The position numbers were made by a program, and so were the translations under genes. 64,000 bases of DNA from Phoronis australis (lineage: Eukaryota; Animalia; Phoronida): contig NMRA01000207.1 in the NCBI GenBank assembly GCA_002633005.1, forward strand, positions 578,828-642,827. The letters are read 5' to 3'. Positions 22,490 through 53,094 of this stretch are shown piece by piece. The notes under the pieces were generated by a model. It was not told where the DNA came from. It searched no databases and saw only the letters and a list, made by a program, of their open reading frames with translations. Position 1 is the first letter of the stretch, and each line of letters opens with the position of its first letter.

Positions 22490-22509
22490 CACACACACAC
22501 TCACACACA

Positions 22510-22570
<61 letters not shown>

Positions 22571-22590
22571 ACACTTGCACGCACGCACAC
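22490..22590. repeat. (CA)n microsatellite in a gene A intron
   Basis: Direct inspection. Confidence 0.95.
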
Positions 22591-23370: not shown

Positions 23371-23694
23371 CTGAGACTAAGAGCAGCACAACACCCTCCA
23401 TGTTTAATTCCGAACGTTTGGTGTTCGTGGCCATACAGGTTATCGACTTTTCACTGTCCGAACGCGACGCAGTGTACGAAAGCACGCTGGAAAATCCTCC
23501 AGTGTTTCTAACCACTGCGCTTTCCAACACATTTTGTTTCTCATTCAATTTGTGGTGCCACGATATGGAAGTTCCCGGATGTGCATTAAACACAGAGCAT
23601 TTCATGCTGTATCGCTTTCCGCTGGTTGTCAGTATGACACCGTCTTCATTAGTCTCCACCTCTAGCGCTTGAACGCTCAGCTGAAGGGGCCCGT
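23371..23694 (-). CDS. Gene A exon: second Ig-like domain (C2/C1-like)
   Basis: Acceptor tttttcatag| and donor cag|gtaaat; 324 bp, phase 1-1. MKCSVFNAHPGTSISW...SVLSYTASRSDSEKSITCMATN shows the Ig C...W...D....C pattern. Confidence 0.85.
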
Positions 23695-24349
23695 CTATGA
23701 AAAAATAAGACGTCAAGGTCACTACAATCATGTACTTTTTGTCAAAAACAAAATTTTCGTTGGCGTATTTACTCTTCCATCAACATCATTGCTGTTATTA
23801 TACAGTAAATCACCCGAAATTTCCCCGACTACCATATTGCTTCGGCAGCAGAATCTGAGCAGCCGTCATGACAAGCTCATTCTGAGACCGTTACTGCTGC
23901 AGATCAGAGTCATTAAATGATGATCTTTTTACTGAACGATGGCGCTCAAAATGAAATGTTTAAGAGGTTGAAAAAGCATAACTGTTTGAGGTCTCTGTTT
24001 TCTCTGTTTTGTTTTGAAAATTGAGTACACGGTACAGTATTTTTAGTTGCTCACATTTCAAATCCACCTGAGACGAGCAAAATGAAGAGGGATTTGTCTT
24101 TTCCTTTTTACCCAAGACATCCAATGGCAAATCATGGTGTCCCAATACGTGATTGTCCTTGATCAAGTGCCTTTGGGCAGCTTTTCGAGAAAGATCTTGT
24201 CTGAAATGGATGCGGGGAGCGTTTCTTGATCGGTTAGGACAAGTCACAATATGAGTCCTGATAGAGACAATAGCCAACTATGCTTTTTGGCCTAGCCACT
24301 CGTGATTCAATGAAATTTCAAGGGTTCCTAACATGAAATACAAACGTAC

Positions 24350-24601
24350 ACGCAATTTGTATTTTGTATTGGGCCCTTTTCGTGTCTTGTCCATCCTGTA
24401 CTGTGCATGTAATTGTCTCCCCATGTAACTCAATTCTAGCTGTATCGTTGAATACCGGCCCTCTTATTTCTTCGCTTTTGGTTGTCGATGTCCACGTGAA
24501 CAACACGTTGGATTGCGGTTGGCCAGTTGGTTGACATAGACATATGATAGGCTGTCCCATAGCAAACCATGTGTGTTCCGTGCAGTTCAACTGGACGCCA
24601 T
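24350..24601 (-). CDS. Gene A exon: first Ig-like domain
   Basis: Acceptor attttag| and donor |gtacgt; 252 bp, phase 1-1. CLCQPTGQP...FTW...HGETITCTV. Splicing to the next exon creates the Ig-linker IAYGP. Confidence 0.8.
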
Positions 24602-24760
24602 CTAAAATATGTCACGTGCGCTTGTTATTTACTACTTTACCAAATGTGGTTTGACGTATCAATTTTGCGACACTCCTCTCACTTAAACAGCATTTCGCCA
24701 TGTTTATCAAGAGCGTAACTCGAAGGAAGCCGTTTATTCCCATAAAATCGGTCTTTTTAC

Positions 24761-24830
24761 CGTGACAGAACTCCACTGTTAACCAACTAGTCACAAGTAA
24801 TGCGTACGTACGCCTTGTCCGAATGAGCAA
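24761..24830 (-). CDS. Gene A candidate leader/signal-peptide exon (5' boundary unresolved)
   Basis: RRTYALLVTSWLTVEFCH followed by phase-1 donor cacg|gtaaaa. No in-frame ATG before an upstream stop, and a repeat begins at ~24834. Confidence 0.45.
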
Positions 24831-24833
24831 TTT

Positions 24834-24960
24834 TAGGGTTGGCCAACCACAATAAATTATGAAGCGTTTTCTCGAGTCGCTGACTGTTTCGATGTTCTTG
24901 CTAGTAATGGTAACAGATTTGTATCACGGAAAAGAATGGTTAGAAATCGATTTTATAACA
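24834..24960 (+). repeat. Transposon-end-like repeat; second copy at ~31252-31375
   Basis: tagggttggccaacc..aat....gaagc.ttttct.gagtcgctga...gatg....gct.gtaa.gg is shared between the two positions. Confidence 0.7.
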
Positions 24961-25199
24961 AAAGTTAAATTCAATTTTCATTTTCGGCCAGCTAAGGAGA
25001 GAGATATGCGGCTTTAATAGGTGATGTATGCTGAAACACAGAATGTTTCCGTTCTTGATTTTCTTTATTTTATCCATGTTTAATTGGATAAAAAGGACTT
25101 TTTTAAAATAAAGAGTTAAAGTTCTTAAAAAATCACAAACGTGATCACAAGACGACCTACTTGTAAATTTTGCGAATTTTGAAGATTAGAAATTCTTAA

Positions 25200-26638
25200 A
25201 GGAGATTGTCACCCGGTTTAATTCGTCTTTTTAACCGTCTTAATCGGTCTATATCCACATCGCTTCTTATACGGTCGACCTCACCTTGCCGTGAGGTGTC
25301 GCGTTAACCTGTGAGGAAGGTGAGAAACGACGCAGCGACATCAGTGGTTCATCTGCCGAGTGAAAGCCACTATATTGCGACGCATCGTTCCCGCTTGTCC
25401 GAACTATGAAGCTGTGAAGAAAGCGGGTGTATCGTTTTTTCGACTTCCTCGAGAGCCCGAAATGCTTAGGAAGTGGCTCGCGATAGTGAAGAATGAAAAG
25501 TACGCTCTTAATAGGAAGTATAAGGCCGTGAAACACCTTCGTGTCTTTGGCCGGCATTTCGTCAACAGTGATTTCTCTGACGAACTCCAGCTTATCAAAG
25601 AACTGTCCATGCGTTCTGCTGCCTGTGCATGTTCACGGCGCCTCTCTAGTATTTCTTGATCTTGATCGGTGTATTCCGGTGAGCTCTCTTAGTCGCCAGG
25701 CGAGTGCCATGTAGACGTTTATTATTCTGCGTTCTGTTTCAAAATGAATTATTCTTACCCTAACCTATGCTGAAACAAAATCTGTCTCATTAGATACAAT
25801 TTGTAATGCCTTTGAAGTATTTGTGAGTGCAAATGTTTTGAGAAGCCAGTTGGGGGAATCTTTATTTAGATATACAAATACATTATTCTAATCATTGTAT
25901 CCTTTTCCCTGGCGGTTCTGTGGAAGGGGAACCTGACTTCACGGCCCCCAACAAGTAAGTAGAATTTCAGTTTCGTGGCTTATTCACCTAAATAATTACG
26001 TGTACATTATTTCTTTGGCTCACTATTATGGGCTTTTCGTAACTGGATGTTTAGTTTCCAAATTAAGCTGGTTTATGTTCATGATGTCCAGTCCCGGCGG
26101 CCGCGACGGGCCTGAACGGGTCCCGAGCCACTGGCGGGGAGTAACAAACGTTTTGTGTGTTTAGAACCGAAAAAATCGCAAGTCTAAAAGTACAACACAC
26201 AGCTACGTTCCCTCTCTGTATTTCACGGAAGAATGATTCGAATTTATCACCAAACAGACCCAAACTCCAGCGATCGACCATGGTAAATTGGCCAGCGAAC
26301 TCTGTAAGCTAAGGTGCGTTCAACTACCTATAAATCCCTAACAGTGAAATAAAAGAACACGTTTGTTCAAGAACTCGATGTATTTGTAAGGGGTTTACGT
26401 CGAATTTTGATGATGATTTATTGATGTAAAACGACGAATTCAAGCAATAAGTCGACACCAGTAAGCGCGTTGTGAACGGCTGAACATACTGCGTTCGAAC
26501 CGATTACATCATTGGTTAATTTCAACAACTCCGTCTACCGTTAGGTCTCAGGTAAAACAACTGAACTTGCTGTTATCGAGTGGAACTACTCTATCTAAAT
26601 TGACACAAAATAGGTTGTTTTTTGGGTGGCATTCTCCT
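25200..26638 (+). mobile_element. Non-autonomous Kolobok-type element with degenerate THAP remnant (ORF 25360-25659)
   Basis: TTAA|AGGAGATTGTCACCC ... GGGTGGCATTCTCCT|TCAA (imperfect TIR, degenerate TTAA TSD). VPACPNY...FFRLP......RKW...LRVFGRHF resembles the THAP at 54876 but has lost Cys ligands. Confidence 0.7.
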
Positions 26639-27176
26639 TCAAAGTATTTATTCAGACAGTGCTTTGCATTGCGCATGCGCATTGATTCCGAGCGTGCACT
26701 TTACTAAAGTACAATAGCTACCATGACAAGGGATCACGCAGACATTTCCCAATTTTGACTCACAATGGCTGAAAATTACCAAGTATTTTCTAAAGGCTTC
26801 TAGTCAGTAATGTACTTTTGGTTAATAAGTTAACCCGAAGTCGTCTCTTCGGCAAAACGTATTGCTACACTTGTGAACCCATGTGCATGCTAAGCTGCGG
26901 CCATATTCGGAATTAGGCGCTTGTTGATAGGCGAAACAGCTTTTAAAATGACATGAGTAAAACAAGATTTGCCTGTTACAAAACGTATTCAATTTAATAT
27001 TAACTTAACTATTCAAAAGTGGTAAAATTAGACCAATCAAATACAGCCAGCTCAAAACACATACACGCACACAAGGAATGTCCGTCAGTGTCTAAAACGA
27101 AACTTACATGGATGAGCATGCCCCAGAATGCGAAACACTTATCAGTAGATTTTTCGTAGTTGTAAGAACCCATTAT

Positions 27177-28614
27177 AGACCTAATTCACGCGGCGGACAT
27201 TAAAATCCAAAGCGAGGCTCACTGAGAAAAACAAAGCAGAAGCTGACATTGTGTGAGTTAAATGGCCGGTCTTTCGAGTCCAACGTGGATATTAAATCTT
27301 AAAAATGTGTCGATAATTAACCACATAGACGTAGAAAAAATACATTAGAGAACAAGTCAATGCACCAAAGAGTTGTCTGACGAAAGGGTATGAGTTTTTT
27401 TCGGAAAACTAGAATCGAAACGTAAAAAATAAATATGACCAAATTGCGTCGATCGTAGTGTTACGGATTAGGTGCAGGATTACGTTTCTTCTTTTAAATT
27501 GTTGATAATGCTTCCTACACGAACCAGGTCATCTGCTCGTATTGTTGACGAGTTGAAGATATATTCGACAGTGGTGGCTCATCACGTTTTGCTGTGATGT
27601 GTAATTAGTCATATCTGGTTTAATTTGTTGATCAAGCATAGCCTATGTCCCGATGATGTAGGGACTACCGGGATTAACAGTTGATTTGTCATTGATCTGA
27701 AAAATAATTGATCTTATTAAATGTGTTTTTTATTAAAATAAATAACCAGGCTCTTAATTGAAAATAAAATTTATTTGACCATCAGTTCTACTTTCTTGGT
27801 TTTAATAATTCTGACGTCTATTTTATGTGTTGAATTTTAAAATTAAAACACCTAATACGTTCATCCAAAGCATAATCTGGTTTTAGAGCTTATAGAACAA
27901 GCATAGTTATCATGTTTCTTCAGGGGCCTCGTTCATCCGATGGGAAGGTGCCTGTGCCTTCTGAGAGGGGAATTTTTTTGCCGAGTGAAGGGAAAAATCT
28001 ACCTCCCGATCACTATCAATAGCACCCCCGCACTACTGCAAGTTCACATAGCCTCTGTCTCAAGTAGCATTTTGTGCTCTTTCAAATTGTCACCTGTGTG
28101 GTTATGTGATTTGAACTTCGAAGAGAAATTTTTAATCAGTGGGGGAATTTTTAGGCCTCGTGGGAGGGAATTTCGCGTGATTTTTCAATGTTTTTGAGAG
28201 GGAAACAGGGCCGATATTCGGCCCCAAAATCGAGGGAGTGAGGGCTCTGTCCTTTTAGGAGGGAAAATGCATCATGTTTCAACCCGTAGTCATGAAAACA
28301 CAGCCTGGCTGACCGAAGATTCTCCGGTCGTTGCTATGTTGCTCGGCAACCGAGATGTGACAAAATATGATCTAACTTTTCGAAAACAGTTATAAATTTT
28401 ACACGGATACATTTTCCTTCGTCTGGGCGTGTGGCAACTACCCAACGCTTCCGAATCTCAACGTCCTTAGGGATTGTAAAGCAGACAGTGGAGTGTCCGT
28501 ATTTTTTCTACCCGTTCGAGCAACGGAATACAGCTACTAGTGCCGATAAGCCAACCGAGCTATCGTAGCGAGCCTCGTTTTGGAACGCGCCTCTTATCGG
28601 CGTGAATTAGGTCT
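27177..28614 (+). mobile_element. ~1.44-kb non-autonomous DNA transposon (AT TSD, ISL2EU-like termini), copy 1
   Basis: TIR AGACCTAATTCACGC/GCGTGAATTAGGTCT flanked by AT; collinear with 60025-61786 and 63274-63835. Confidence 0.85.
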
Positions 28615-29229
28615 ATTGCGGGCATATGTAAGCTTATGTACCTTAAGAAAGGCTTACATTCAAATCAAGATTGCTTTCTCGCCCGCAGCTGGCCGCATAT
28701 AAGGTAAAACACTCAAAAACAGTTGATTTCCCATTTAAAAATAATTATTTTACAGTCAGAACAAAAAATAGTTACAACAATATAAAATTGTAATTGTTGA
28801 TGATGCGTGTGCAACCTAAATACATGTATGTGACTCGGCGTCCTACATTCCCATCTCAGCAGTGAGAGGTCGTGGTGCATGGGAGACCGACTACAAACTT
28901 TTAAGAACGGCCCTAGAATATGCTGCTGCGCGCACAGGCATTCTTTTTATTACATGCTGCGTTGCGTTCCCAATACCACACGAGTCTGGGACAACTCGCG
29001 CCTAGTACAAACGGTACATCGATTAATTAGTGCTGGCTGGCCACCTACCTATTTTTGACGACGCGGGCTCAAACAGCAGAATCGTAGCAAAGACTCGTAC
29101 CATCACGAGAAACACTGAAAAGAAATGACCACGTGTTGAGATTTCTCGAATGTCCAAGAGATTTCTGCTGCAGGTGAAGAGTCCTAGAAGACACTGCAGT
29201 CAGCAGTCCAGCTCTGGCTTTCCGACAAC

Positions 29230-29680
29230 CGGGCTCGCTTCACTTTGTTACAGTATTAGTCAACATTGCAAACTTCAACAGAGCAGCAAATGGGTGGTCA
29301 ACAGACGGTTAAAAAATCATGGCTGTCCGCTTAGCAAATTAAGTTTCAAAAGACTACGGGCATTATTTTCAGTTTGCGGTCTGCCTCCCGATAGTCACGT
29401 TTCAGCACATTACCATAGGTGTCTGTCGGCGCCTTCGGCAACACGCGATTTTGACAGTCACGTGACTTTCTGATCTGCTTGAAATTTGCACATAAGCAGA
29501 TACGAAACAGTGCCGATGTATAATCTGAAGGTACGAAAATACCCGAGGAGTCCCGGATGACCCCTGTCCGGCTAACAAACGCTTCCTCGTCTATCGACAG
29601 CGAAATTCCAGGGTCAGGGCCCTGTCTGTACTCGGAACTAGCCTGACTGGAAAACCGACCAACTGCATGGCACACTTTGA
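29230..29680 (-). pseudogene. Possible degenerate piggyBac-like transposase fragment
   Basis: PGISLSIDE resembles the piggyBac first catalytic Asp motif, and LPKAPTDTYG resembles Y.PxKP.KYG. Heavily disrupted; no termini found. Confidence 0.4.
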
Positions 29681-32600
29681 CTTAAAAATACAATTTGTTC
29701 CTCGACTAATGAGACATGATTGATAAAAGTTCTATAATCACCCTTATTGCTTGCAAAAAAAAACAAAAATCCAACTAGGACTTTTCAAACAAAATCAGTT
29801 TCGTGACATTCCATACGTGGATAAGATGCAATTTCCATTACAAGAACAAGTCACAGACAACGCGTGCATGCGCCATTTCCGAATTCACAATGCATGGCCT
29901 GGCCTAGCCAGCCTGCTAGTTGCATGAAGACTATCGTCAAAGTACAACTAGGTAGCGACTGTGGGTTGAGCTCCGACGGACCACGAAATTGTACACAGCC
30001 TGGGAAGTTCTGCTCGTCACCTCGCCGTCAAACTTGTATCAACATGTAGAGCTAAAGACCGGCGGGAGTGCATGCAAAATCTGGGAGTCAACCGACGCTC
30101 ACCTTGCCCGTTGCAGTCGTTTAAGTGAAAAAAAAACAATGTAATAAACGCCATTTTCTTGCGTAATTATCCGCCGTTTGCAACAATGAAAAGTATGTCG
30201 TCTTTTTGAAAACAGTACACTTATGTCACGCGCCCCCGACATTTCCTAAATTCTTGCGACATCACTTGGGAGATGACATCTTCACAGCAGCAAAATTTGT
30301 TCTGAAATTCGGTTTGCTGGAATCAAAATACTAAAAACTTTTAATGAAGTGAAACCAGTTTCGATAATTTGTTGAAAACGCTGATTGAAGAATCGGCGAA
30401 AAAAGAAACTTGCCAATAGGTGACGCAATATTGCATGGCGCCGAAAGCCGACGTATGAGATCGCTCTACAACTTCAGCAGCAGAGTATCTAGTCAGTTTT
30501 CACCCACATCGGCGCAAAGCTGTATTTAGTATACAGCTTTATCCCATACACGCGTTGAATCAGTCGAGTGCAATACGGCCATGTAATGTGGTTCTCCTTA
30601 TTCACTCCCGCATTTCTTTAAGAGTGCCCTCTCACATGGACAGTTCAAAAGGTAGGTCAATGTTGACTCGATGTCGTAAGCCCGTTCGACCATAGTTTAA
30701 AGTAATACAGTTGCAGCAGTATAAATAGCACTCAACATGCAATCAGGCCATACACGTAACATCTGGTACAAAACTGTTAATTATATGACACTTGTGTCTC
30801 AGTTTTCAATTGCTAAATATTGTACCGTCTGCAACTCAGGCGGTAACTATATTTATTTAACTACTTTCAAATGTTACAAGTTCTATGCTTAATTACCGCT
30901 GTTTTCAACTTTCTTGTCTCTTTAAATAAGAAACCGTTACATTTAAAACTGTTTCTTCTACAAGAAAACTTATAACACAACGCGGAAGTATATACATATA
31001 TGATGTGATCCGCCATGGGAAAAGTCTGGTGAAGTACTTAAAAATCTGCCGAAAAAAATGAAAGAAACTTAGGAATTCGAAGCGTGTGGGATAAGTACAA
31101 AATGTAGCGAGAATAATGTATCTGGGGATATTACTTCATCTACGCCACTCTCGGTGCGCTTTGTGCACTTAGCCTTGGTACAAAGTTGTATACCAAGTAT
31201 TTTGACGACAGTCTTCATTCAGCTAGCTGGCTGGCTACTTTGTACTAAGTCTAGGGTTGGCCAACCCCAATTGCTACGAAGCATTTTCTTGAGTCGCTGA
31301 TGGTTTTGATGATTTTGCTGGTAACGGAAATAGAATCCTATCGTAGAAAGGAATATTGTGACACCGATTTTTTTAGAATAATCGGCCTAGTTCGAGTTTC
31401 GCTTTTACGTAATTGGCAGTACGAAATACAACTTTACGTTTCGAGTATAAGTCTTTCAGTCGAGTGCAGACCTGGTGGCAACAACTATAACCACTAAACA
31501 CATATTACGTGATGCTAACTTCTTTATAGATTATGAGACTAGAGAAGAGAAGACGAAATATGTGTTCAGCTTCAAGATTAGCAGGCTTGCTTTGTGAATG
31601 TACATGTAGAATTCATTTTGCGTGGCTTTAAAACAATATTCATTTGTATCGCACTGCAAAGAAACGAGTCAATTCGAAGTCTTGGCTTTCTTTCCATACA
31701 AACACACTAGATCTGGCTTCCAGCTAAGAAAGCAGACACTGGGGGTACTGTACATACCATTTTTTTTACGCCATGCATTTTGCATTTCCGTTCGTTTCCT
31801 TGAATGGTATAATCATCGTCAATACCTATACCATGTACTTCTCAGGCACGCAGTGAATGAAATGCCGCTTCTCTCGCATTTCACACACGTATGTCCACGT
31901 GCTTCCGTCACGAAATCGTGGTTTTCAAGCAAAAATTGTTTTTCTTCACTAACACTTAGAGATACCTTTCTTCAAAAGCAATCCTATCCTTTTAAAATAA
32001 ACCTTGTTTCGATTTCCTCTTATTAGATTTCCAGTTTCCTCTTTTTTTCTCTTGTTTGATCATTAGTTTGACTTTATTTGTGCAGAAATGCTTACTTTTA
32101 TTAAATTTTATAACACAAAAAATTATCAGACAAGCTTATATATTTGTGGAATTATACATCACCTGGAAAATTACCTCTTTTTTGTCATTTTTCGTTCCAA
32201 GCTCTGAACCTCAGCTTAGCGCAAACAATTGCTTTGGGTTTTGGTTTACCGCGACACTTTCTACATGGTGAGTAAGATAAAACTGATACTGGTATTACCA
32301 GTTTTAACTTAGATTTACTATTGGATGCTTTTCTTGATTCCTGATATTTTCTCACCCAAATGTCTGCGGTTTGTCTACAAGGTGGTCATAGAGAGGCAGA
32401 TATTAGTAGACACACTTTTGGCTGTCAAAGGTCACCATAAAGCTCCTGTGTAAATTATGTATACTTTGTTCAGTGATGTTTTACTGCTTAGACAATTCAT
32501 ATCCTGCATTTAGACATCTTGAATTGGAGAATGATGGTGTTGAGCATTACTGTTATTTTGAATGGCTGCCTTGTTGGTTAAGTAGTTTTGCTTGTAAGGT

Positions 32601-35411: not shown

Positions 35412-35810
35412 CCAGCGGCCCTGGAGAAATTTGAATCGCAGTATTAAGTTACCATACGAAAATGTGTCTGTGGATTGTTTGTGTGTGAAGAGGAACTATA
35501 TCTGACAACTACACCAGTCAGCCTCATTGGCGAGGATGCCATTTCATAGGCAATGAGTCGTGTGTGGACAATAATGGCTTATTTCCTTTCCTGGAAGAAA
35601 CATGAGGGACTGAAGCTAAAGAAGACCTAGTAACACTCAGGTCTAGTTGAGGGTCAGATTTTGGTCAAAAAGCGAGTCAAGGGATATGATGTTGCTGTGT
35701 TTACCTTCAATGATCTAATTGTGGACTTTATTGAGGCTGGACGATGTTACATGAAGGAAAGCCACGCGCCAAAGCAGACCTTTTTAACAAGCGCTTCTAT
35801 AAGCCATTGA
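35412..35810 (+). pseudogene. YqaJ/lambda-exonuclease-like remnant
   Basis: AALEKFE...CGLFVCEEELYLTTTPVSLIGEDAI (cf. CGLFV....LGASPDGL). After a frameshift: LKLKKT...VEGQILV...YDVAVFTFNDLIVDFIE. Contains stops. Confidence 0.7.
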
Positions 35811-36659: not shown

Positions 36660-36860
36660 ATGTAGTCTCTCGATGGAAATGCATAGAGCACACACACAGG
36701 GCGTGAGGCTTCGGCATCCACACACTTTTTGTCACTTGGTGGACCCTTTTGACCGCAATTCTTCACGCCTGTAATAACCTCAGTTCTTTTGGGAATTTGT
36801 AACCACCTGTCGAAGACTTACACGCAGGAAAAGGCTTAGCGCGACGTGGTATTTTGATAA
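36660..36860 (-). pseudogene. THAP domain remnant of the ISL2EU-like transposase
   Basis: PACKSSTGGYKFPKELRLLQA*RIAVKRV...WMPKPHALCVCSMHF; the conserved THAP Trp codon is mutated to TGA. Confidence 0.75.
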
Positions 36861-38074: not shown

Positions 38075-39777
38075 TCACTTGTCGCCAACCGAGTCGGACT
38101 GCGAGTAAGAAGACCGCCCACTCTCCACAACTTTTACATTATGACTGTGATGACTTGTGGCCCTTGCGTGTACCCTCGGTTTTATAGGTGTTTGGCTATC
38201 ATTCTCTTTAGCTACGACGTCATCAGCTTTAGGACGCAATGTTTCATTAATTCCAGGTAAAACTGTCATACGAGACATCCTTTTCCATTTCACGTCGTCT
38301 TCGGATTTCCCGCGTTCAATATCAGGGCGAGATATGCGGCCCAAAACCTGCTCAGTGATAGACTGCATGGACATCCTGGAGTTCTCTTCTTGCTCTCGTT
38401 TCTTCTCCTCGGCTAAAACAGAAGCTTTTTTCCTAGCTCCCATGATTTCCACCTGGACCCCGTCCTTCATACTTGTCAGAATGTGCTCCTGTCTCTCCCC
38501 CGTAGCTGGAAACGGTGCCAACATTTCCAGCTGCAGACGTGCTTTACACACAGCGCGGCCCCACTCTTGTAATTCTGCCGCGAGGTCGTACGCCTTTGTT
38601 AGCTCTCTCCGTTCAATATTGTCCAGTAAATTCAGAGCACGAACGGCAATTTCGGGGTGCAGCTTGTGCGGTTGAAAGTTCTCAAAGCGTTCGTCCAGCG
38701 GAGGAGTTTCTAATCCCTGAGCGATGCTGCACAACTTGTTCAGCTTCGCGGTGTCCTTCGTTGTTTTTTCAGATTCGCCTAGAATCAGCAACGTTGCCAC
38801 CATACAATCTCGAACTGTCTTTGATCGCCGGATGACATCCTTCAGCGGAGAGAAGAAAACCTTTTCGACACTCACTATCTTATTACAAGCCCTCTCAATT
38901 TTTCGCAGTATATACACCACTCTACTTGCATTCTTGAGTTCTTGTTGTAGTTTTCCATGTAGTTTTGCACCCTGTATCGTCTTAACTAGGATAAGAATTT
39001 TTGCCAGATTCAGATTGTCAACAGCTTTTGTTAAATCTTCGCTGAACCGGATAGTATTCAGTATCGCATTGGCCTCCTTTATGACATTGCACTCTAGCTC
39101 TGTCTTTTTACTAAGTGACTGGTAAAGAGTAAGGGCTTTTTCAATCTCCACGGCATTTCGTGATTCGTTGGCAAACAGTAAGTTAGTCATGAGGTGGTCA
39201 TGGTCTATGTCCAAGTCGCTGTCTCGGTGCACGACACCCGCAATATAGCCATCGGGAGCGGGAATAGCGGTTTCGGCGTCGGGCACTTCTTTTACCTTAT
39301 TCATACTCGCAGTTTCGTTTGGAATGTTGGAATTTCCTTCACTTGGCTCCAAATTTTCTTCACTGAACCGAGCCCGCCGCGAGGGTGATTCAAACTCCGA
39401 AATCATGGAAGGAGATTTCGAATTGTCTTGAATGGACCCGCCCTTGATGATTGACTTTAGCGGGAAACGCAAGTCACCCTGCAACGTGTCCGTAGAGCCC
39501 CGAAGGGTCTGTTCCGTTACTCGCCGTGCCTTATGACTACTTGATACTGACTTTTTAGTGTCTCGCCTTCGAGACATCGTACTTTTTCTAGACTTTGTTG
39601 AAACTTTTGTGTTGCTTTCTTCAGTCTTAGCCGTCCCCTCTTCGGGGATGCACGTTGATGCCACTTGTTTTTTCGTCCGTTTTAAATATATGACGACGCC
39701 GAGAGCAATACTGGCTATCAATATCGGAACACCAACACTGCCTACCACGATATACACTAGCAAGCCCACTTGTACTT
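38075..39777 (-). CDS. Gene B terminal exon: TM helix, linker, helical region and divergent dynein-MTBD-like domain
   Basis: 564-aa ORF; acceptor ttttgtattccag| phase 1. TM LLVYIVVGSVGVPILIASIALGVVIYL then KRTKK. VRDCMVATLLILGESE...ERFENF...LHPEIAVRAL...EWGRAV at ~38548-38880. Confidence 0.85.
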
Positions 39778-41974: not shown

Positions 41975-42348
41975 GTAGAAAAATCTTGCCAAAATCACGT
42001 ACGTGTTCTCATTTAAAATACTCGGCAATATCTCGCGTAGTCTTGCTTTTTTAGGGATGCCGTAGTTATTGAACTCTGCCCGGGTAGTGTGCAGTAACGC
42101 TAGGGCTTTGCGAATGGCCGTGTGTAGTAAACGAGAGCACGTGATTTTGGCTCTCTAGGCTAGAATTTAGCGAGATCCCCAGCGTCACTGAACTCTACCC
42201 TGCCTTCCGTTCAGGCTAGGACCTCGCTAAAAAGCAAGACTTCGCGAGACTACGTGAGATATTACCGTGTATTTTAAATGAGAGCACATGACTTTGGCTA
42301 GATTTTAGCTAGATCCTAGCGTAGGTACCAGCGTTAGTGAACGCAGGC
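41975..42348. mobile_element. Cluster of about three adjacent copies or fragments of the ~150-bp MITE also found at 5973-6122
   Basis: Recurrent blocks aaaatcacgt.....ctcatttaaaatac.cgg.aatatctc.cgtagtc and agcgt.actgaac in both orientations. Confidence 0.65.
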
Positions 42349-42474
42349 GTGGATTTTCAAGAAAACCGGAAGTCGAGGACCAATCAGGTGTCTCAACCAC
42401 GGGTTGAGTCGGCGGAACCCTTGAAGTTAGCCTAATCAAGTGCAGCCATTAACAATAATTAACAATGCACGTAC

Positions 42475-42660
42475 GAATTGAGCAACTGGGTGCGTTTGTC
42501 CACGAAAACAAATCAGTGATGCTGTCGTTGGTGCACTTAACATATGGCTTTCCTACAATCTTGTGGTTTTCATTGCACGCGAATGTTACGTAGAACAGGC
42601 CATCGTCGGATTTCACTTGGGTTGGTTTGCTGTTTGCTACTGTTGGAGACGGACCGCACA
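42475..42660 (-). CDS. Gene B exon: CCP/sushi domain
   Basis: Acceptor ctattccag| and donor |gtacgt; 186 bp, phase 1-1. CGPSPTVANS...VTFACNENHKIVG...VKC......W...PSC has the 4 Cys plus Trp of a CCP module. Confidence 0.85.
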
Positions 42661-43143
42661 CTGGAATAGCAGTTAAGCACAATGTCTATCAGACGCAATT
42701 TACAAACAGACCCATACGAGGGGCAACACCTTGACCAAAGAACGTAACCAGACCATGGGTGGGGGATTGGAGTTTGGCCCCCAAGTGTGAAGTTTAGTTA
42801 TTGTACACGGATTATTTTCAGTGCACAGGTGGATTAACCTTTGATCTCAGTCCTGTTATTGTATTTGTCTTCCCCGAATACAGTTGGTACTTGTTGACTT
42901 CAATGGTTGTGTTGTTTTATTCATCTCTCGCTATAATTTCCACAAGGGGCCCCGGGTGTGGAAATTGTATCGTAGAATTGGTGTTTTCTGTCATCTTGAA
43001 CGGGTGATTAGGGTGTCCTAGCTGGAGTTTAGAGGTGAGTTATGCAATCGTTTCTACCCACTGGTTATATAATTACTAAGTAGTGGTTGTAAAAGGGATT
43101 AGCGGTCAGCTGCACTCGTGATTTACAACGTGTCACAAGAGAT

Positions 43144-43680
43144 CATGACAGCGTTTTCCTGTTCAGTGACTTTACCAGACGAAGGGGGTTCTTTTTCTGA
43201 GCGTGTGATAACATCTAGCTTCTTTGTTAACTGCCAAGCACAGACTTTTGTCTGTTATGACAACAGGCACGCCACTACCAGGATTATTACAGACCATGTG
43301 TGAACACCGTCAAACCCAGAGTGAATTGGTACATTCGGAAAGAATAGATTATGGTAACTTCGGTTGCAGTTGGGCGATTTTGGCGATTCAAAAACTAAAC
43401 ATGATCACCATTTGACGAGGATTTCAGAAATGCTATTGGATTATGTTCAAATATGTTATAACTTAGCTTTTATTTTTAACATCACATCCCAGTTAGGCTA
43501 GAGATGATCTTATTGAAGATTAGAGCAATTATCGAACAAAAGAGAGCTGGCCTTCCAACCACGAATGCCAAAATGGAGTTAATCAGTCGTGTAAGATATT
43601 GGCTACAGGGGTAAACTTCCCAACTTGTTGTTGGGCTATAGAACCCAACAGGTTGGGAGCAACGGGAAAACGTTATAATG
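43144..43680 (+). mobile_element. ~540-bp TIR element (copy 1)
   Basis: Ends CATGACAGCGTTTTCCTGTT / AACGGGAAAACGTTATAATG; inverted copy at 44683-45167; split copy at 59513-59680 plus 62686-63031. Confidence 0.8.
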
Positions 43681-44682
43681 TTCTACAGCCACAATAACGT
43701 AATCGTAGTGTCCAAGTGGACATCAATCAGAGGCCTACCTTTTGGTTGGCCAATTGGGTACAAAGCAATATACTGTCAGAGGGGATCGATTTGGGGACCA
43801 TAGCCTTGCCAGCCACTGTTATGATTGTCTAAGGGGTTCTGATATTTGGTTAGCTGAATTTTATCAAAATTTGGACCTGACCCTGCGACGAAACCTAAGT
43901 AGAAATTCAAGTATTCGAGACGTTTTTTTTTTCTTAACAGGTGGCTAAATGGCGTCCTGCATGACGCCAGCAACGTTATTTTGATGACTGGCCATGGAAC
44001 TGTGGTTCGGAGATAGGCAGTTAAGGAACTCTTCCGGGGGTAGATGAAGCTGATTCCGGAAGGATGCAGACTCAGGGACGCAGGAATTCCACAAGGGAAG
44101 CTAACGGGATCGCGTACTTCACTTGTAACACAGAACTCCACTGCTCAGAAATTGAATGAACAAAAAAGTATTTGGGCAACAGGTGAACATATTGTACAAC
44201 TGAAAACAGTAAGAATTTATGCAAGCACAAACAGACACACTAGACTACGCAACTACGAGCAGTTTTTCGAAAGTCACGTAAACACACCTGTCTTAGTTGG
44301 GGCAACTTTCCATTTGTAACTGCGGAACAAACACACAGAAACCAAATGTCACTTCTTTCAGTAAAATACAGTAACACGATTTTAACATACAAAATGGTTT
44401 GTTGAAAATCTCCTCGCATGTAGTTTGATAGCTTGTATAATGTAGTTCTAAGACTGGAGATGAAAAATGTCAGAAGCCAGACTATTACCGGTATCCGACC
44501 AGAGCCACGAGTGGGTGCATATAAAGAATGACCAATGTAATTGTCGGGTTTGTTAATTAATTTTGTCGGGAAATGGCTGGTTGTCCAGAACCATAGCTCA
44601 AGAGTCAATCTTGACGAACAAAAATGTCAAAATGAAAATGAAGCAATGAAATTAAGCTTGATTTGATAACTGCAACTTTCAA

Positions 44683-45167
44683 CATTACGGCGTTTTCCCG
44701 TTGCTCCCAACTTGTTCGATTCAATATGACCCCTGTAGCTAACATCTTACAAAACTGATTAACTACATTCTGGCATTTAGGGTTGGACGGTCAGCTCTCT
44801 TTTGTTCGATAATTGCTCTAATCTCCAAAAGATCGTACTTAGTCTGGCTGGGCTGTGCTGTTGAAAATAAAAGTTATAACATGTCTGAACATAAACTAAT
44901 AGCATTTCTGAAATCCTCGACAAATGGTGATCATGTTCAGTTTCTGAATGGCCAAAATCGTCCAACTACAACCGAAGTTACGACAATCTATTCTTTCGGA
45001 ACATACGCTTTAGGTTTGACTGTGTTCACGGGTGGTCTGTAATAAGCCTGGTAGCTAATTGGCCTGCCCGTTGTCACACCGGAAAAAAGACTGTGCTTGG
45101 CAGTTAACAAAGAAGCTCACAACTCTCTACGTCAGGTAAAGTCATTGAACGGGAAAATGCCGTCATG
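44683..45167 (-). mobile_element. ~490-bp TIR element (copy 2, inverted relative to 43144-43680)
   Basis: CATTACGGCGTTTTCCCGTT / AACGGGAAAATGCCGTCATG; collinear with the reverse complement of copy 1. Confidence 0.8.
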
Positions 45168-45351
45168 ATCAAAACTCAGTCGAGCAGACAATCGGAAAGC
45201 TCTAATAGTAGATTACATTGGTCACGGCGTGTGGGAGTTTCCAGAGCTAGAGTTCTATGCCTTGTAATGGTCTGGCGTGATGTTGCGGTTTCGCGAGGTT
45301 CTCGCGTATACGTAACGCACGCCAGGCCTACAGTAGCAGGACAGTACTTAC

Positions 45352-45450
45352 GGGGATGTGTCCAAAAATTCTTCTCCTGCGTTCTCACAGACTGACAGAG
45401 CCGAATGCACACATATGCTGACAAGCTTCGCACAAGAAGACACAGACAGG
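45352..45450 (-). CDS. Gene B candidate signal-peptide exon 2
   Basis: Acceptor ttattccag| and consensus donor |gtaagt; 99 bp, phase 1-1. With ATGCGTG|gtaagt at 45704-45698 it gives MRACLCLLVRSLSAYVCIRLCQSVRTQEKNFWTHP, in frame with the CCP exon. Confidence 0.55.
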
Positions 45451-45697
45451 CTGGAATAAATTATGATCAGGCGAGTGAATATCAGTGTTTCGACACGATT
45501 TGCAAAGCAACGGTTCGCTGAGCAAACAAGAAACTAATAGGGAGCGTCGTTGGGTGAAATGGTCCGACAACCGTAAACATGTTGACCATAATATCAGACT
45601 TAATATCGAACAAGACGAGAACTGCATCGCGAATGTTGTAGGAGTTTCAAAGCCATTACATGTAAGTGTTCGTAATGGTGAAAAACTTGGCACTTAC

Positions 45698-45704
45698 CAC
45701 GCAT
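45698..45704 (-). CDS. Gene B candidate start-codon exon (coding part ATG CGT G)
   Basis: ATG followed 7 nt later by a perfect gtaagt donor in phase 1; nearby upstream out-of-frame ATGs exist. Confidence 0.45.
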
Positions 45705-47074
45705 TCTTACTATATGTCATTTGCTTGTTTAGTATGACGTCATTTTGACGTTTTGAAGCCAATCAAAAATACTAAAAAAATAAACACAATTGGGCCACAT
45801 TTGTGTAGTGCTGTAAATTACTATCCACTACGAAAGTTGTTAACTGGCTGTTATGGACCCGCTCAATCTCAATCTTCCTCAACTCCCAGGGAGCATACTG
45901 TAGAAAGGACCGACAAAAGTAAATACTTACGGCCAAATCACAATCAAGGTCCATATTCGAGAGTTGACTGCGTTACGGTCTAAAATAATTTTTTGGTTAC
46001 TTACCAAATGCCAACTGAATCTCATATGCAACGAGTTATTTAGTTTTGCAAATTAAAAAAGAATCATCAAATCGGACAATGTTTAGGAAATTTATGCATG
46101 TTTTTGTCTATGAATTTCATGCATTTTTAGCTTTACCAATTTAACCATTAGCCATTTTAAAAATTACGATTTTCAATTGTCAACCGTAGAAAAGAAATTT
46201 ATTTTATCAAGTAAGCAATTGCTTAGATATGAGTGGGAATAACTTGAGTCACTTTCAGAATCACTTAGATGAAGTTGTGAGAAATGGTAGGGTTCATCAT
46301 GGAACAGGCACTCGTTACGAAATTTGAAAATTCTTTGTTTCAACTATCTTATGAATTTTTGCATTATAGAAGTGGGCTGTGACCACAAGTTATAGTGCAC
46401 GTACCCTTTTATACAACTGTTATAGTTTAGGCCATGAAATTTTATTCGGTGGTTCTTGTGCAAAAATATTTTAGATTACATGGCACTTTAAAATAACCCA
46501 GCTTTTACAGTTACATAACAACCTTCATTTTTCACCAAAAGTGGCCACCGAATATGGAACTTGATTGTGATTTGCCCGTTACCAAAGATGCGAATTGAAC
46601 AAAACCGATTTGCGATTTTGATACACAAGGACGAAAGAATCAGACGCTCTTTCTGGAACCCGAGTCATGTGAAAACTTCTCATTGGACGTTGCCGTATGA
46701 GAGACAACTCCAGAGCTTCACAACATTCCTCCCCATCATATCTTTTGGCGTCTTCGGCGTCCAGCGTCATGAATTCCAGTAGAACCCCATCCCCAAGAGG
46801 ATACAATTATCACCGGGAGGTGAGATAATAAAACCCCGGGTATAAGCCCACAACCGCAAAAACAAAACAATGATGAACCATACACAAAAAATATGTATTC
46901 ATACCAGCTTACCTTAACGTATACCTGATCGTATACGTTCTCGAACCACACAATAAAATAACACATAAATAGAGAAATTGTATAACCTTTATATAAAAAA
47001 CTTGAAAATACTATGACCACAATAAACGCGAAATTCCTTTTTCCCTCAAATCCCCAAATATAAAAAGTCGCTTA

Positions 47075-47370
47075 CAGATACGTAAAAGTCTCCCCGTTCA
47101 AGTGCGTACTATGTAAGATCCGGTAGATGGTTGTCTCCCGCAATTCTGCAACGCGAGCAACCACGATGCCCAACCTATGGGGATGTCTGGTCATATGGGG
47201 TTGGCTCCGGATATGCGACGGTGTCTGGTACCCTCTGACACAGCGCCACTTATACTGCAAACTTTCGTTTAGCACTGTGATAGAGTGTACATGTCTGTCT
47301 CAATCAACATCCTGTCCAAGGGATCTGCGCTATGGCTTCTGCATGCTCCAATGACGTTTCCATTGATGTA
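47075..47370 (-). pseudogene. TatD-like DNase C-terminal remnant
   Basis: EAIAQIP/(frameshift)LDRMLIETD matches the TatD IPLDRLLxETD motif. HPHRLGIVVARVAELRETTIYRILHSTHLNG matches the TatD terminal helices. Confidence 0.6.
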
Positions 47371-47490
47371 CTACCGATCGAAAAGTAGGACTGGTGTTCT
47401 AGAAACTTTCGACACACTCACGCACTTCAGACACCCCCACCCCCTGTCCCCGGAAAAAGAGTGTAGCTGAATCCCAGTTTCGCGCGGCAA

Positions 47491-48645
47491 TAGCGGATTT
47501 GCAGCGCAGACGAACTACGCATTGCGCATGTGCGAGTTACTTCCTTCGCGAAGGCTCATGGGATAGCTTGTGGTCAGGCATGTCTTGAGCAGGCTGGATA
47601 GTGTGTGCATTTGGAGTGATTTGCAAACTAAAAACCATGTTTCATTTTTTGCTTTATAATACCAAGCAAGGCCTCTCTCTCGTTTGTAAACACAGCGTAG
47701 CTATGATCAGTGACCGTGTGACCGAGAGCACGACTGTCGCCGTGTTCAGTATTGGGGTTATCGGCGTTGATTTCGAAATCTCCTCCTATTTCAGACAAGT
47801 TGAGAGTTCTTGGGTTGCTTAACTTTTGTAGCTTTCGTCGTGGATATGNGAGGAAGTTACGTGAAATTACGCATGTTGACGAATAAAAAGTCCAAGGGAC
47901 ACACATCTTACAAGTTTCACCCGATACCTTCTCATGCTATTTTACAAGTGTCGCGCGCTAGCGTCACGCGCTTCGCTCAGTCTAACCTTGCGCCTAACTC
48001 ACGGGATTCAGTTGACATGCTTTGTAGTTATCGCGCACGCGGTGATAAAATTAATGGCAACCAAAAAAGTGGAGTTGTAGTTCTTCGCCAAAGTCAACTT
48101 AATTGTCACAACTAAGCTTCATTAAAGATATGTATAGAAGTAGAAAGGACCAATGATGAAAGTAAGCGTTTTTTAAATGATAGTTTTAAGTGTAGAGTGT
48201 ATTTTTGACGAGGTGAAAACTCGAAATCGGTAACCCAAATCCGGTCACGGCCCGTTTAAAATACACTGGAGTAACGAAATGAGTACAGAAAGCGAATGGA
48301 AGTATTGTAGCCCCTACATGGCCAACCGAGGGGCTACGTGTTGCCTACTAGATGGCCCCGCATTCGTTTGAATGCGCTAAATTTCCCCTTACTCCCAGGT
48401 CTCCTAATGTTGTTTATCCATTTTTCACAAAGTTCTTGGTTTGCAGGGAACACATACAAACTCAGATTTTTATCTCTCTTGTTGTTTTTGAAGCAGCCAG
48501 GAACACAAGTGAATCCGCCGTAAGTTTTCTTCGCGCTCATACCGCGTATTATGCTTGTTACTATGGCCGCTTTCGGAATCCTGACCACAGCACCCACAAT
48601 GCACCATTTTAACTAATTTCAATATGGCGTCGCTGCAAATCCGCT
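47491..48645 (-). mobile_element. Non-autonomous ISL2EU-like element with partial THAP ORF (48334-48597)
   Basis: Inverted ends (GCAAT)AGCGGATTTGCAGCG / CGCTGCAAATCCGCT(ATTGC), compatible with an AT TSD. TCVPGCFKNNKRDKNLSLYVFP.....EKWINNIRR is the N-terminal half of a THAP domain. Confidence 0.7.
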
Positions 48646-48669
48646 ATTGCTTACGAGCAATTTCTAAGA

Positions 48670-49385
48670 CTCGCTGGTTCCCTACGTGCTGCTAGGTTGT
48701 CGGTAGCTAGCAATCAATTAACTTTCCTCGGGAAATTTATTTACACCGGCGTTTCTGATTGGCTACTCGAATTCTCAACAGGCAGCGCTTTACGCAAACA
48801 AACTGGCATGACTGATGTACTGAAATGTAAATGTGGTCTGTTGGCAGTGGCGGATTTAGAGGGGGCCAGGGGGGCCGTGCCCCCAAAATATCCCAGATTC
48901 CATTTGGCAGTTTGGGGATGGGAATGCCTGAGGGGCAAAATCCTGGCTAATAGCCTGCCCTGGCCCCCCGCCTACCTCAAAATTCTGGATCCGCCCATAG
49001 TTGGGTAGACAAATCGGTGCTTAAAACTGATGTTCAGGAAATGTGAATCCTAGAAATTGTAGTTGCGCCTTTTCGTAGTGTATTTTTCTACTATCGATGA
49101 CTGTTTACGATACTGTCCTGTATTCATACAGTATGAATAACACACCATGAAATCGGCCAGATATGTGTTTATTGTACATGTATGTGCTTCAAGCACGCGG
49201 CTATTAAACATCACTGCAGAAACGAAATAATTGTTGCAAAGCCACTTGCATGACAAGGCTAAAAATAGTTCACACTCCGCCATTTTTTCATGTTTTCATT
49301 GTAAAGCTAACCAATGACTGCTGATGTTACATCATCCAATGCTTAAGCGCGTGCCACTGCGTGATACCTGCGTGCTGGCTAGGCC
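48670..49385 (+). mobile_element. Copy of the 15867-16474 element, interrupted by a MITE at 48845-48999
   Basis: Collinear identity with 15867-16460 on both sides of the insertion. Confidence 0.85.
48845..48999. mobile_element. G/C-run MITE with 5-bp TSD (hAT5-like)
   Basis: gttgg|CAGTGGCGGATT...GATCCGCCCATA|gttgg; the empty site is seen in the 15867 copy. Confidence 0.75.
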
Positions 49386-49974
49386 CATGCCCTTTGCGGT
49401 GCACCAGGCGTGCTCAGGTCACAAGACCGGATCCTGCACTGCACCAATCACCTGCATGATTATATGTTTAAGACTTAAAATGGTCAAAAGAAAATCGCTA
49501 GGCATTGCCAAAACTGACCCAGCCCCTGACATTAACTTGTTGCATACATTAACAAAAGTTTTAAATTTGTGTGCCGCAGTATCTGAGATTCACTCACTCA
49601 TCCACTGCCCACTACTGCTCATGCGCAAGCGCATCTCCACCACCCAAATTGTGCTTTGGTGGCCAACTAATAAGCATTTCAATCACGACCATACGTTTTC
49701 CTCGAAATGCAGAAGGAAACTAAATGTATACTTGTGTTAGTTTTGCTGTGATGGTGCTCTGATCAAGAGCACTATCCACACACGTGCAATATAAGCTGTA
49801 AATGTAGTGCATAAGTTCTTATCGTGTTTAGTAAGTGCCAGTTAGTGTTGACCAATGAAACGCTCCGGTATGTTGGTTTCAGTTTTTATTTCTTTTATAC
49901 TCTTCTAGGCTCGGTACGCCGGGAAAGAGATCAATGCCAAAGAATACGTGTCACATAAAAGCCCTTTTCTAGTC

Positions 49975-51422
49975 TCAAACGACATCTAATGTGGATTTTT
50001 TTACCACTGCATCTGCACTTTGTTTACTCGTGTCTTGCCTACTGGACATTTCAGTTTCATTTAAATTTTGATTACTCTTGTCTTGTCCATGAATCGATGT
50101 AGAGTCAGCCACGCTGACGTATTTGTCATCATCATTCAACAGCGAATCAGAAAAAGAATCCGACTCCCCTTCAGTCGTCTCATCCAAATGCCTGTCTTCC
50201 TTTATGATGCGTAGATCAGCGTCCACGCGAATATCTGTGATATTTCTCTCTTGGCGATCTCCTGTTGCTTCTTTGGATGTGAAGTGAACCAGCGAGATCG
50301 CACACTTGCTGACGTTCTTCGCCCAGGAGTATAAAACTCCCACACCTTTACTCAGTTTGTCAATTCCCTTCCTTCTGTAAGGGGATAGGCGTGTGAGAGC
50401 TCTCTGTGCAACCTCGGGATGCAGATTTTTAACGTGAAAGTCTTTAATTCGCGTGTACAAACCTAGATATTGCCGCGCACCGACCGTATCAGACATGAAC
50501 TGGCAAGTGGTCCAGTCGGATGACAAGTGTTCGGGCTCCCCCAGGACCAAAAGTACTGCCATCATAACGTCGTGTACTACAGGCGGCGGGGGATTGTACT
50601 CGCGCACTTGAGAGAGGATTGCTCTGTCCATTCGCAGTACGAGTTTTGTTGATTTCTTCGTCCTTTTCAGTGCTTGGGAAACCCTTTTGGCTACTCTCAG
50701 TTCAAGCCACAACCTTTCTTTCAAACCTCTCGTTTTCACCGACCGAATCACGTGGTTAATAATTGACAGGTCGCCCTCTCTGATCGCCATGTACAAATCT
50801 GTCCTGCACTTGCCAACGAACAGGAATTCTCTTGACTGTCTGATTACGTTCTGGTCGATCTCGAACACTACGCCTATACTCTCGTACGCAGCGAGACACC
50901 TTTGAATTTCGACAACATCCATAGAAGAGTTCGCATCCAAGAGTGATTTCAACAGGACAAGATAGGTCTGCTGTAGTTGATACTGTTGTTCCGTTTTCTC
51001 GTCCTCCGTCAAATCGCCTGCTTTCCGTGCTTGTGCAATCTGCTCCGCCAATGTGATCTGGGGAATATCATCGCTAGGTCTGAGCGAGCTTCTTCCGTGT
51101 GCGGGAGATCTATTTGAGGAGAGCGTGCGAGTCACTGGTGCCTCTTCACACATTTTCTTGAATTCGGAGACGTCTTTTTCATAGTCCCTGTTTGCATCCA
51201 AGATAAGGTCAAGCGACGCTGTTTCTTCATCTTCCACGGTTGAATGGTTTTCTCTTAGTTTTTTGACGGCCTGCGTTGGTAAGTCATCCGTCAGGACTGA
51301 GCCTACCTGCAAGCTTGGTTCCGTTTTTTGCGGCTTCATGTACCACACGCCCATCAGGACAACAAGAACCCCAACAAGAATGAAAGATGATGCTACCGCT
51401 ACAGGGACGATAGCCACGTGAT
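49975..51422 (-). CDS. Gene C terminal exon: TM helix, linker, helical region and dynein-MTBD-like domain
   Basis: 480-aa ORF; acceptor ttatctttgcag| phase 1. TM IVPVAVASSFILVGVLVVLMGVWY. LSQVREYNPPPPVVHDVMMAVLLVLGEPE...DW...RIKDF...LHPEVAQRAL...IDKLSKGVGVLYSWAKNV at ~50305-50640. Confidence 0.88.
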
Positions 51423-51867
51423 CTGCAAAGATAAGGAAATGCTGTTACCGCAGTGATCTTTGCTTCTCAGACAAATTGAGTCAAGCTGGACGTGTAATAT
51501 CTATGATTGGATGTTCGCGATCTGAATTGTTGGAGTTATTTCAACATCTAGCTTTCTGTGTGACCGATCAACATCATGATAATTATCAGCCATTTTCAAT
51601 AGGAAGGATAAAGCACGACATTGTCCGGTGAACGTTGTTCGCTATGTGTCGCGTCAGACGCTTGTTGAACTGTTGAAACTAATACACATATGCAATGAAA
51701 ATAATTGTTCATGTCAACTGCAAATTACATTGTAGCCAAGTTAGTAGCCATGCACAAGTTCCACACTATCTTAAAGTGGCTCATTTTTCGAAGCCAACTT
51801 CCTCTGGTACAGTACAATTTCAACACGTTTAAGATACGTTCAATCATGAATTCTAACCCATAAGTAC

Positions 51868-52146
51868 CATCACATAACGGTATGTCGCAATATGCCCACC
51901 GCTTATAGCCGGTTGTGAAGCACCACGGCCCCTTCTTTTTGCGGCTGGGGTTCCTGCAATAGTTGGATACGTTTTCCATGTGCCGATCTGGGAAATGCGA
52001 GGCGTCCGTGTACTTATGTGCGTGAGGCATGGGTACTGACCACATTTGACAGGTGAATGGTAGCTTCCCCAAGAAAACCCTGTTCTGCTTGCCGATATAG
52101 TTGTATCCAATAACATCTGATTTGCAGTCTACGTTGCGCGTGTAGC
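51868..52146 (-). CDS. Gene C exon: kringle domain
   Basis: Acceptor tctctgtttag| and donor |gtactt; 279 bp, phase 1-1. DC....GYNYIG...CQMW...PHAH...NYCRNP....GPWCFTT...RWAYCDIPLC has all six kringle Cys and the NYCRNP signature. Confidence 0.92.
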
Positions 52147-53040: not shown

Positions 53041-53094
53041 CTTCTGTGTCGTATGACTGGATTGTTATCCACAGCACCATCAGTTGGCCTGCAA
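53041..53094 (-). CDS. Gene C candidate leader exon
   Basis: Perfect donor gaag|gtgagt in phase 1; acceptors at 53094 or 53088, both phase 1. Encodes (VA)GQLMVLWITIQSYDTE with an in-frame ATG at 53080. Confidence 0.5.

Follow-up and report, generated by a model that had tools for sequence, protein, structure and literature searches.

Three adjacent Phoronis australis genes join unrelated phase-1 ectodomains to cytoplasmic tails with a predicted dynein microtubule-binding-domain fold

Receptors generally reach microtubules via adaptors or motors. An invertebrate membrane protein that is itself fused to a domain derived from a cytoskeletal motor is molluscan chitin synthase, which carries a myosin motor domain (PMC2241824). 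Kringle, immunoglobulin (Ig) and CCP modules, in turn, are shuffled through symmetric (class 1-1) exons (PMC6600238). Here we analyse a stretch of 64,000 nucleotides from Phoronis australis (contig NMRA01000207.1, positions 578,828 to 642,827 of the forward strand), hereafter the window, in which three genes on the minus strand, A, B and C, place an Ig-Ig, a CCP and a kringle ectodomain, respectively, before a transmembrane (TM) segment and a homologous tail. The shuffling mechanism is identical to that of other class 1-1 proteins, in which symmetric exons carry mobile modules into non-homologous settings, and is ordinary and textbook; what is unusual by comparison is that three adjacent paralogs bear three unrelated ectodomains on a tail with the predicted fold of the dynein microtubule-binding domain (MTBD). 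The tail is the new point. Whereas chitin synthase is an actin-based enzyme with a full motor head, these proteins would be receptors with a bare track-binding foot.

The core common to the three tails is ~250 residues long and occurs three times in the window in a six-frame hidden Markov model search. By sequence comparison, the tail is homologous to the dynein MTBD. A profile of the three tails searched against the PDB ranked six dynein MTBD chains first, at weak E values of 0.04-0.5, while an 82-sequence profile of the wider family matched the yeast dynein MTBD (E 3.6e-11) and DNAH6 (E 5e-11) with the whole domain covered. Two homologues exceed the cut-off of the Pfam dynein family PF12777 (P0042, 26.0; P0013, 24.6), and some family members carry automatic PF12777 labels. 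In the Atlas, unnamed, mostly molluscan clusters scored 0.93, 0.90 and 0.87, and a PF12777 cluster scored 0.78, which we treat as a lead only. For tail C, the only tail modelled, AlphaFold returned a model with a pLDDT of 91.7 and a pTM of 0.84. It superposed on the mouse dynein MTBD (3err) with a VIA Z of 16.7 and a root-mean-square deviation of 3.2 A over 151 residues. The Z values to dynein MTBDs were 16.7, 16.6, 14.5, 13.7 (6l4p, residues 95-224) and 11.8, compared to 8.2 for the top unrelated row. The top 10 Foldseek rows were likewise dynein or axoneme chains, with a TMt of 0.71 to 6rzb_C and a modest best E of 5.9e-4. A generic helical bundle is made up by residues 1-99 of the model. 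The tail core is predicted to consist of a helical bundle followed by a dynein MTBD fold.

Compared with the dynein heavy chain (PF12777; 3err, 6rzb, 6kio, DNAH6), the tails have the MTBD fold and its flanking helices, the basic equivalents of K3299 and R3382 and, in tails A and C, the PP, LG and final W motifs. They lack the AAA+ ring, the long CC1/CC2 stalk and the glutamate of H1; a ~100-residue helical bundle precedes the MTBD instead, and the domain is placed in the cytoplasm on a predicted type I membrane protein. The three genes gave no AAA match in Pfam. A dynein heavy-chain fragment or pseudogene was rejected as an explanation, the tails being intact and spliced to signal and TM exons, and a transposon origin of the tails was also rejected. 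Four chains not labelled dynein (9fqr_Xl, 9e5c_2e, 7jrj_I and 9ya2_L), all axonemal or microtubule-bound, matched the tail C model at Z 7-10. Judged by size, 9ya2_L is probably Toxoplasma ICMAP2, whose non-motor domain is bound on the microtubule exterior (PMC12819142). Like the tails it would be a non-motor globular domain, with a Z of 10.2 to the tail C model; unlike them it is not part of a membrane protein, it shares 9% identity, and the available text of PMC12819142 does not call it dynein-like. It is a probable precedent for a non-motor domain of MTBD fold on microtubules.

The exons of the three genes, all on the minus strand, are listed with the evidence for each.

31758..31845, minus strand: gene A exon 1, with the 5' end and an ATG at 31785, ending in phase 1 (read-end pile-up and joint).
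29049..29114, minus strand: gene A exon 2, 66 nt in phase 1-1, with the core of the signal peptide (joint 24601-29049, hydropathy).
24350..24601, minus strand: gene A Ig-like exon 1 (Ig1), a weak Ig assignment, sometimes skipped (joint 23694-24350).
23371..23694, minus strand: gene A Ig C2-set exon 2 (Ig2) (Pfam C2-set_2, joint to tail A).
20375..21990, minus strand: gene A TM and cytoplasmic tail exon, phase 1 to 0, conserved core 20750-21487 (stranded depth).
19734..19832, minus strand: gene A last exon, coding part (loose ends at 20374 and 23370 matching 19802 onward).
Ending 45698, minus strand: gene B candidate ATG exon (prediction only).
45352..45450, minus strand: gene B exon for the signal peptide, 99 nt in phase 1-1, with the acceptor at 45450 placed by inference (joint 42660-45352).
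42475..42660, minus strand: gene B CCP/Sushi exon, four Cys (Pfam Sushi; spliced from 45352).
38075..39777, minus strand: gene B TM and tail exon, conserved core 38459-39196 (stranded depth).
55300..55309, minus strand: gene C exon 1 coding end, ATG plus three codons plus 1 nt (joint 53094-55300).
53041..53094, minus strand: gene C exon for the signal peptide, 54 nt in phase 1-1 (joint to kringle).
51868..52146, minus strand: gene C kringle exon (Pfam Kringle, joint to tail C).
49975..51422, minus strand: gene C TM and tail exon, conserved core 50221-50958 (stranded depth).
50287..50676, minus strand: the part of tail C with the dynein MTBD fold, core residues ~95-224 (AlphaFold, structure match).

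Transcription was followed in raw RNA reads deposited under the same species label, using ~18-19% of each run. Reads from four runs (X1-X4) were placed on 39000-58999 and reads from two runs on 20250-40249; we consider 15 of the 194 joints of the former interval and all 8 joints of the latter, where a further 141 loose ends lie outside the list. Gene A begins at a cluster of read ends at 31843-31845. Its exons 1 and 2 are connected by 104+91 reads (joint 29114-31758), exon 2 and Ig1 by 93+61 (24601-29049), Ig1 and Ig2 by 95+69 (23694-24350) and Ig2 and tail A by 63+55; tail A, with a continuous stranded depth of 49-97, is joined from 20375 to the last exon at 19832 across a phase-0 intron (86+71 loose-end reads). 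Minor forms skip exon 2 (24601-31758, 17+9 reads) or Ig1 (23694-29049, 10+10 reads). A further 29 loose-end reads in run X2, absent among the X1 rows listed, join Ig2 (23371) directly to the last exon at 19832, giving a frameshifted, TM-less form with a predicted product of 232 aa. This Ig-Ig isoform is probably secreted.

In gene C, exon 1 is spliced to the signal exon (55300 to 53094, 38+25 reads), the signal exon from 53041 to the kringle exon (57+40) and the kringle exon to tail C (28+14), whose stranded depth reaches 70/56 in X1/X2 and is 0 in X3. The kringle-tail C reads are fewer than the signal-kringle reads, and a second acceptor for the kringle donor at 51868 may exist. In gene B the signal exon is spliced from 45352 to the CCP exon (34+18 reads), and tail B has a stranded depth of 18-29 in X1/X2 and 0 in X3. 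The CCP exon appears to be joined to tail B, since the two lie on the same strand, occur in the same two runs at matching depth (~31 and 21 over the CCP, taken by hand from bin means, versus 18-29 over tail B) and have almost nothing stranded between them. With zero depth over tails B and C in X3, their expression depends on tissue, stage or condition; the X4 contigs, with no depth over either tail, were uninformative. RNA joints thus flank Ig1, Ig2 and the kringle on both sides and the CCP on its upstream side. The pairing of ectodomains with tails in the initial annotation therefore holds by direct joints for Ig-Ig with tail A and kringle with tail C, and probably, by depth, for CCP with tail B.

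The stranded RNA evidence resolves separate genes A, B and C that each start with leader exons of their own, in line with the earlier proposal of unrelated ectodomains on homologous TM-tail exons; the leader exons, present in all three genes, had gone unmentioned. The genes have a common skeleton of ATG exon (predicted in B), signal exon, domain slot and TM-tail exon, and their complete open reading frames (ORFs) of 596-794 aa encode signal, ectodomain, TM and tail. In genes A and C, joints and hydropathy put a signal peptide, an ectodomain and one TM on the same transcript. The tails lie in long ORFs (20357-22054, 38075-39799 and 49975-51444) with a hydrophobic segment right after the phase-1 acceptor, where hydropathy peaks at 2.1-2.8. 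The phase-1 starts claimed earlier for these exons were borne out, at 21990, 39777 and 51422, with RNA reads confirming 21990 and 51422; their description as terminal exons fails for tail A, which splices on to 19832. The four ectodomain exons have, as annotated, ag/gt borders and lengths of 252 (Ig1), 324 (Ig2), 186 (CCP) and 279 nt (kringle), each a multiple of 3, on the minus strand and are open in phase 1-1 only, and the classing of Ig, CCP and kringle as classic phase-1 shuffled modules is established in the literature (PMC6600238). Eight of the nine RNA-supported introns are in phase 1. This is higher than the typical animal background of ~30%, and such an excess is the normal state for secreted modules.

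The domain assignments hold, with differing strength. The kringle exon matched Pfam Kringle (E 5e-17), Ig2 matched C2-set_2 (E 5e-8), and the CCP exon matched Sushi at E 7e-4 and 20.4 bits, slightly below the cut-off of 20.7. Ig1 gave no match in the Pfam scan and is Ig-like on weak evidence: weak Ig-superfamily matches (MDGA1, E 0.008) and an all-beta single-sequence model of low confidence (pLDDT 50), whose weak Foldseek matches were mostly Ig/FN3 sandwiches. The tails are less alike than supposed. They had been called the same tail and a constant effector; they are 27.5-29.1% identical over 251-292 aa (E 1e-25 to 6e-37) with unalignable flanks, differ at key residues, and the three gene regions have no DNA similarity in blastn. 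In a midpoint-rooted FastTree phylogeny of 121 sequences and 220 columns, from which 32 of 150 matches were dropped for partial coverage, they form one clade with a support of 0.997, and the branches between them are long, at 2.1-2.4 substitutions per site. No immunoreceptor tyrosine-based inhibitory or activating motif (ITIM/ITAM) was found in the cytoplasmic parts, the sole match lying inside the TM of B, and a Pfam scan of the three genes gave no kinase, TIR or death domain. The linker of tail B (within 38075-39777) has three [ST]xIP motifs, which may be fortuitous, and tails A and C have none; EB-binding SxIP motifs resemble these.

Word-indexed searches for homologues gave no matches, while an exhaustive HMMER search that used the core alignment as its query yielded 521 cluster representatives at E<=1e-3, 169 of them at 1e-10. 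The 150 listed include 83 scanned against Pfam (E 1e-5, E 1e-3); the other 67 are mostly short. Among the 83, 51 carry Ig-like_KY, often with Transglut_core, and others vWA, CLCA with vWA, CD20-like or EF-hand domains or the module on its own; none has a kringle, Sushi or C2-set Ig match. MG..S-like N-termini, a myristoylation motif, occur in 35 of the 150. The 20 members looked up by name come from sponge, rotifer, molluscs, annelids, amphioxus and tunicates. The KY/hillarin-like invertebrate proteins (the label hillarin occurs in no database name returned) resemble the window genes in having the homologous bundle and MTBD module at the C-terminus. They differ in being cytoplasmic, many with MG..S starts, without signal peptide, kringle, CCP or C2-set Ig, and in keeping the H1 glutamate; the three window genes gave no Pfam match to the transglutaminase-like core or Ig-like_KY, so that the C-terminal module alone is common to both. 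In two KY-like homologues, P0098 and P0135, the MTBD-like module is closely preceded by a weak match to CARD. The same tail is found in membrane proteins of amphioxus (P0123 and P0126, CLCA-like; P0012/P0023, multi-TM) and a tunicate (P0048, vWA-TM). Of these, the amphioxus CLCA-like/CD20-like proteins and the tunicate vWA-TM protein (P0123, P0126, P0012, P0048) also carry the module in a predicted cytoplasmic tail. Their ectodomains are other ones, they are uncharacterised database entries, and in the tree such membrane-anchored homologues are not sister to, or the nearest neighbours of, the window tails, so the amphioxus and tunicate fusions are probably independent. The sister clade of the window tails is KY-type with weak support (0.61), so that the tree supports the tail clade but no particular donor. 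No paper describing the module or the receptor architecture was found in the open literature (subscription papers and supplements lay outside the scope), and in the portions of text available the label 'MTBD-like' surfaced only for TTLL11.

The gene structures bear on the origin of the tail. Of the 27 short homologue fragments, 24 had the LG motif located, and 20 of these end with a Val (GTN) eight residues past it; a Trp follows that site in 112 of 118 full-length homologues, and the window genes read through. Breaks at a Val (GTN) codon point to read-through of a phase-0 GT donor, and thus to an intron at this site in many homologous genes. The window genes hold the TM and the whole domain on a single exon, as expected if their ancestor was a retrocopy or had lost the intron. 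The skeleton common to A, B and C suggests whole-gene duplication with exchange of modules in the slot; this would fit no less well than the tail-exon duplication proposed in the initial annotation.

Interface residues are given in mouse numbering, counted from printed alignments and checked against the acidic positions tabulated in PMC4987762. The glutamate of H1, which aligns as mouse E3304 and Dictyostelium E3390, forms a salt bridge to alpha-tubulin R403 and is central to the weak-to-strong switch, strong binding and ATPase activation (PMC4298687). Full-coverage homologues have E at this position in 118 of 118 cases, even though the query had no Glu there. K3299 adjoins beta-tubulin D427 (PMC6629372), and its equivalent is R, K and K in tails C, A and B, in the order used for all positions here. 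The R3382 equivalent is K, R and K, and that of E3378 is K, K and R; an E-to-K change at E3378 raises the run length, binding time and binding strength of dynein (PMC4987762, PMC6659695). The K3298 equivalent is acidic in all three tails, and H1 and H6 of tail C resemble DNAH6, which likewise has D-K at K3298/K3299. The interface evidence is mixed: the H1 of the family appears constrained like that of a real MTBD, and the receptors have given up the switch residue and acquired an H6 of more basic character.

We lean, on balance, towards reading the predicted single-pass proteins as motor-less tethers that would run from an extracellular partner to microtubules. Several results weigh against it. 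At the H1 glutamate position tails C and A have Q and tail B has P, and the loss of the glutamate from all three makes it likely that microtubule binding is weak or lost. The R3306 equivalent is R, Q and K, hence lost in tail A; tail B has neither the PP motif nor an equivalent of W3333; and the MTBD parts of the three tails carry net charges of +8, +4 and +1. The R3382 position is acidic (D, E) or neutral in most homologues and K/R in a minority, so that the interface of the family departs from dynein too. PF12777 gave no match in the window tails in the Pfam scan, the signal peptides and TM topology are assigned by hydropathy alone, and no CCP-tail B joint was seen among the 15 of 194 joints listed. 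The MTBD fold also occurs in the radial-spoke chain 7jrj_I (Z 7.3), and a dynein MTBD binds LC1 in 6l4p, so the fold alone is no proof of microtubule binding. These other contacts, the loss in all three tails of a glutamate otherwise invariant, the further core motifs lost in tail B and the long branches between the paralogs would all suit a degenerate scaffold for some other cytoplasmic partner, the proteins then being lineage-specific adhesion or recognition receptors that do not bind microtubules. We take this possibility seriously while doubting it. The fold is kept at high confidence, with the core conserved at 28% beside flanks that cannot be aligned, the equivalents of K3299, R3382 and E3378 are basic, kept or gained, in all three tails, and tail C has the DNAH6-like H1 and H6.

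The layout of the locus admits two other readings. Regular read-through splicing between the co-oriented paralogs, suggested earlier, would produce chimeric receptors such as the kringle with tail B or A; every slot is phase-compatible, gene A does skip phase-1 exons, and the shortfall of kringle-tail C relative to signal-kringle reads leaves room for another acceptor. This is nevertheless quite unlikely, though rare chimeras may occur. No joint connects two genes among the 15 of 194 listed for 39000-58999 or the 8 of 20250-40249, all of which fall inside gene A or a repeat; no loose ends of at least 19 / at least 16 reads are listed at the Ig1 and tail A acceptors, against canonical counts of 110/70 and 63/55; and all three genes start with leaders of their own, with a distinct 5' end in gene A. 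A single gene holding all the exons, with alternative last exons, would account for the common strand and for the same on/off pattern of B and C across runs. It is scarcely credible and largely refuted, given three distinct signal-peptide exons, the start of gene A at its read-end cluster, stop codons ending tails B and C, and, within 20250-40249, no joint that exits tail B.

Under the preferred reading as motor-less tethers, an MTBD module of the KY/hillarin or stand-alone type, made intronless by retrocopying or intron loss, would have become part of a TM exon. The receptor gene would then have duplicated long ago, and the phase-1 slot between the signal and TM exons would have taken different modules. 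The ectodomain would bind a cell or matrix partner and the TM would anchor the protein, while the tail, past a poorly conserved linker of 120-160 residues, would hold cortical or axonemal microtubules. With the H1 switch glutamate gone and basic residues retained in H1/H6, this hold would probably be weak and electrostatic. Ligand-driven clustering would add avidity, and the TM-less Ig-Ig form of gene A would be secreted and could compete.

Other features lie around the three genes. An intronless 657-aa ORF with a DUF229 match (17197-19170, plus strand; Pfam E 5e-108) is convergent with gene A, its end lying ~0.5 kb from the last exon of that gene. ORFs with THAP domains, and one that is P2RX7_C-like, are found at 54106-54885 (minus), 25324-25659 (plus), 48334-48612 (minus) and 53755-54126 (plus), one of them inside the first intron of gene C; where examined, reads lie over them on both strands with many differences, as over transposon repeats. 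A 332-aa ORF at 213-1211 (plus) with a Tesmin/TSO1-like CXC domain (E 3e-5) is probably transposon-related, and a 12-nt tandem repeat at 9453-9823 contains repetitive ORFs on both strands.

Taken alone, the exon shuffling at this locus is a tidy textbook example, and its interest rests on the tail. We tentatively suggest that the dynein MTBD may exist as a free, motor-less module in invertebrates from sponge to tunicate, repeatedly fused to membrane proteins, and that it may serve here as the effector of receptors with exchangeable ectodomains that couple directly to microtubules. If true, a surface protein with a dynein-type foot would be a direct link between membrane and microtubule that needs no adaptor or motor. 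The genes would also offer natural variants, since the family keeps the switch glutamate without a motor and three receptors have lost it, and these would let one ask what roles the H1 glutamate and the MTBD play when uncoupled from the AAA+ ring. Beyond Phoronis, the comparison assigns a fold to a C-terminal region, so far without a name, that many invertebrate proteins of the KY/hillarin-like and CLCA-like kinds carry.

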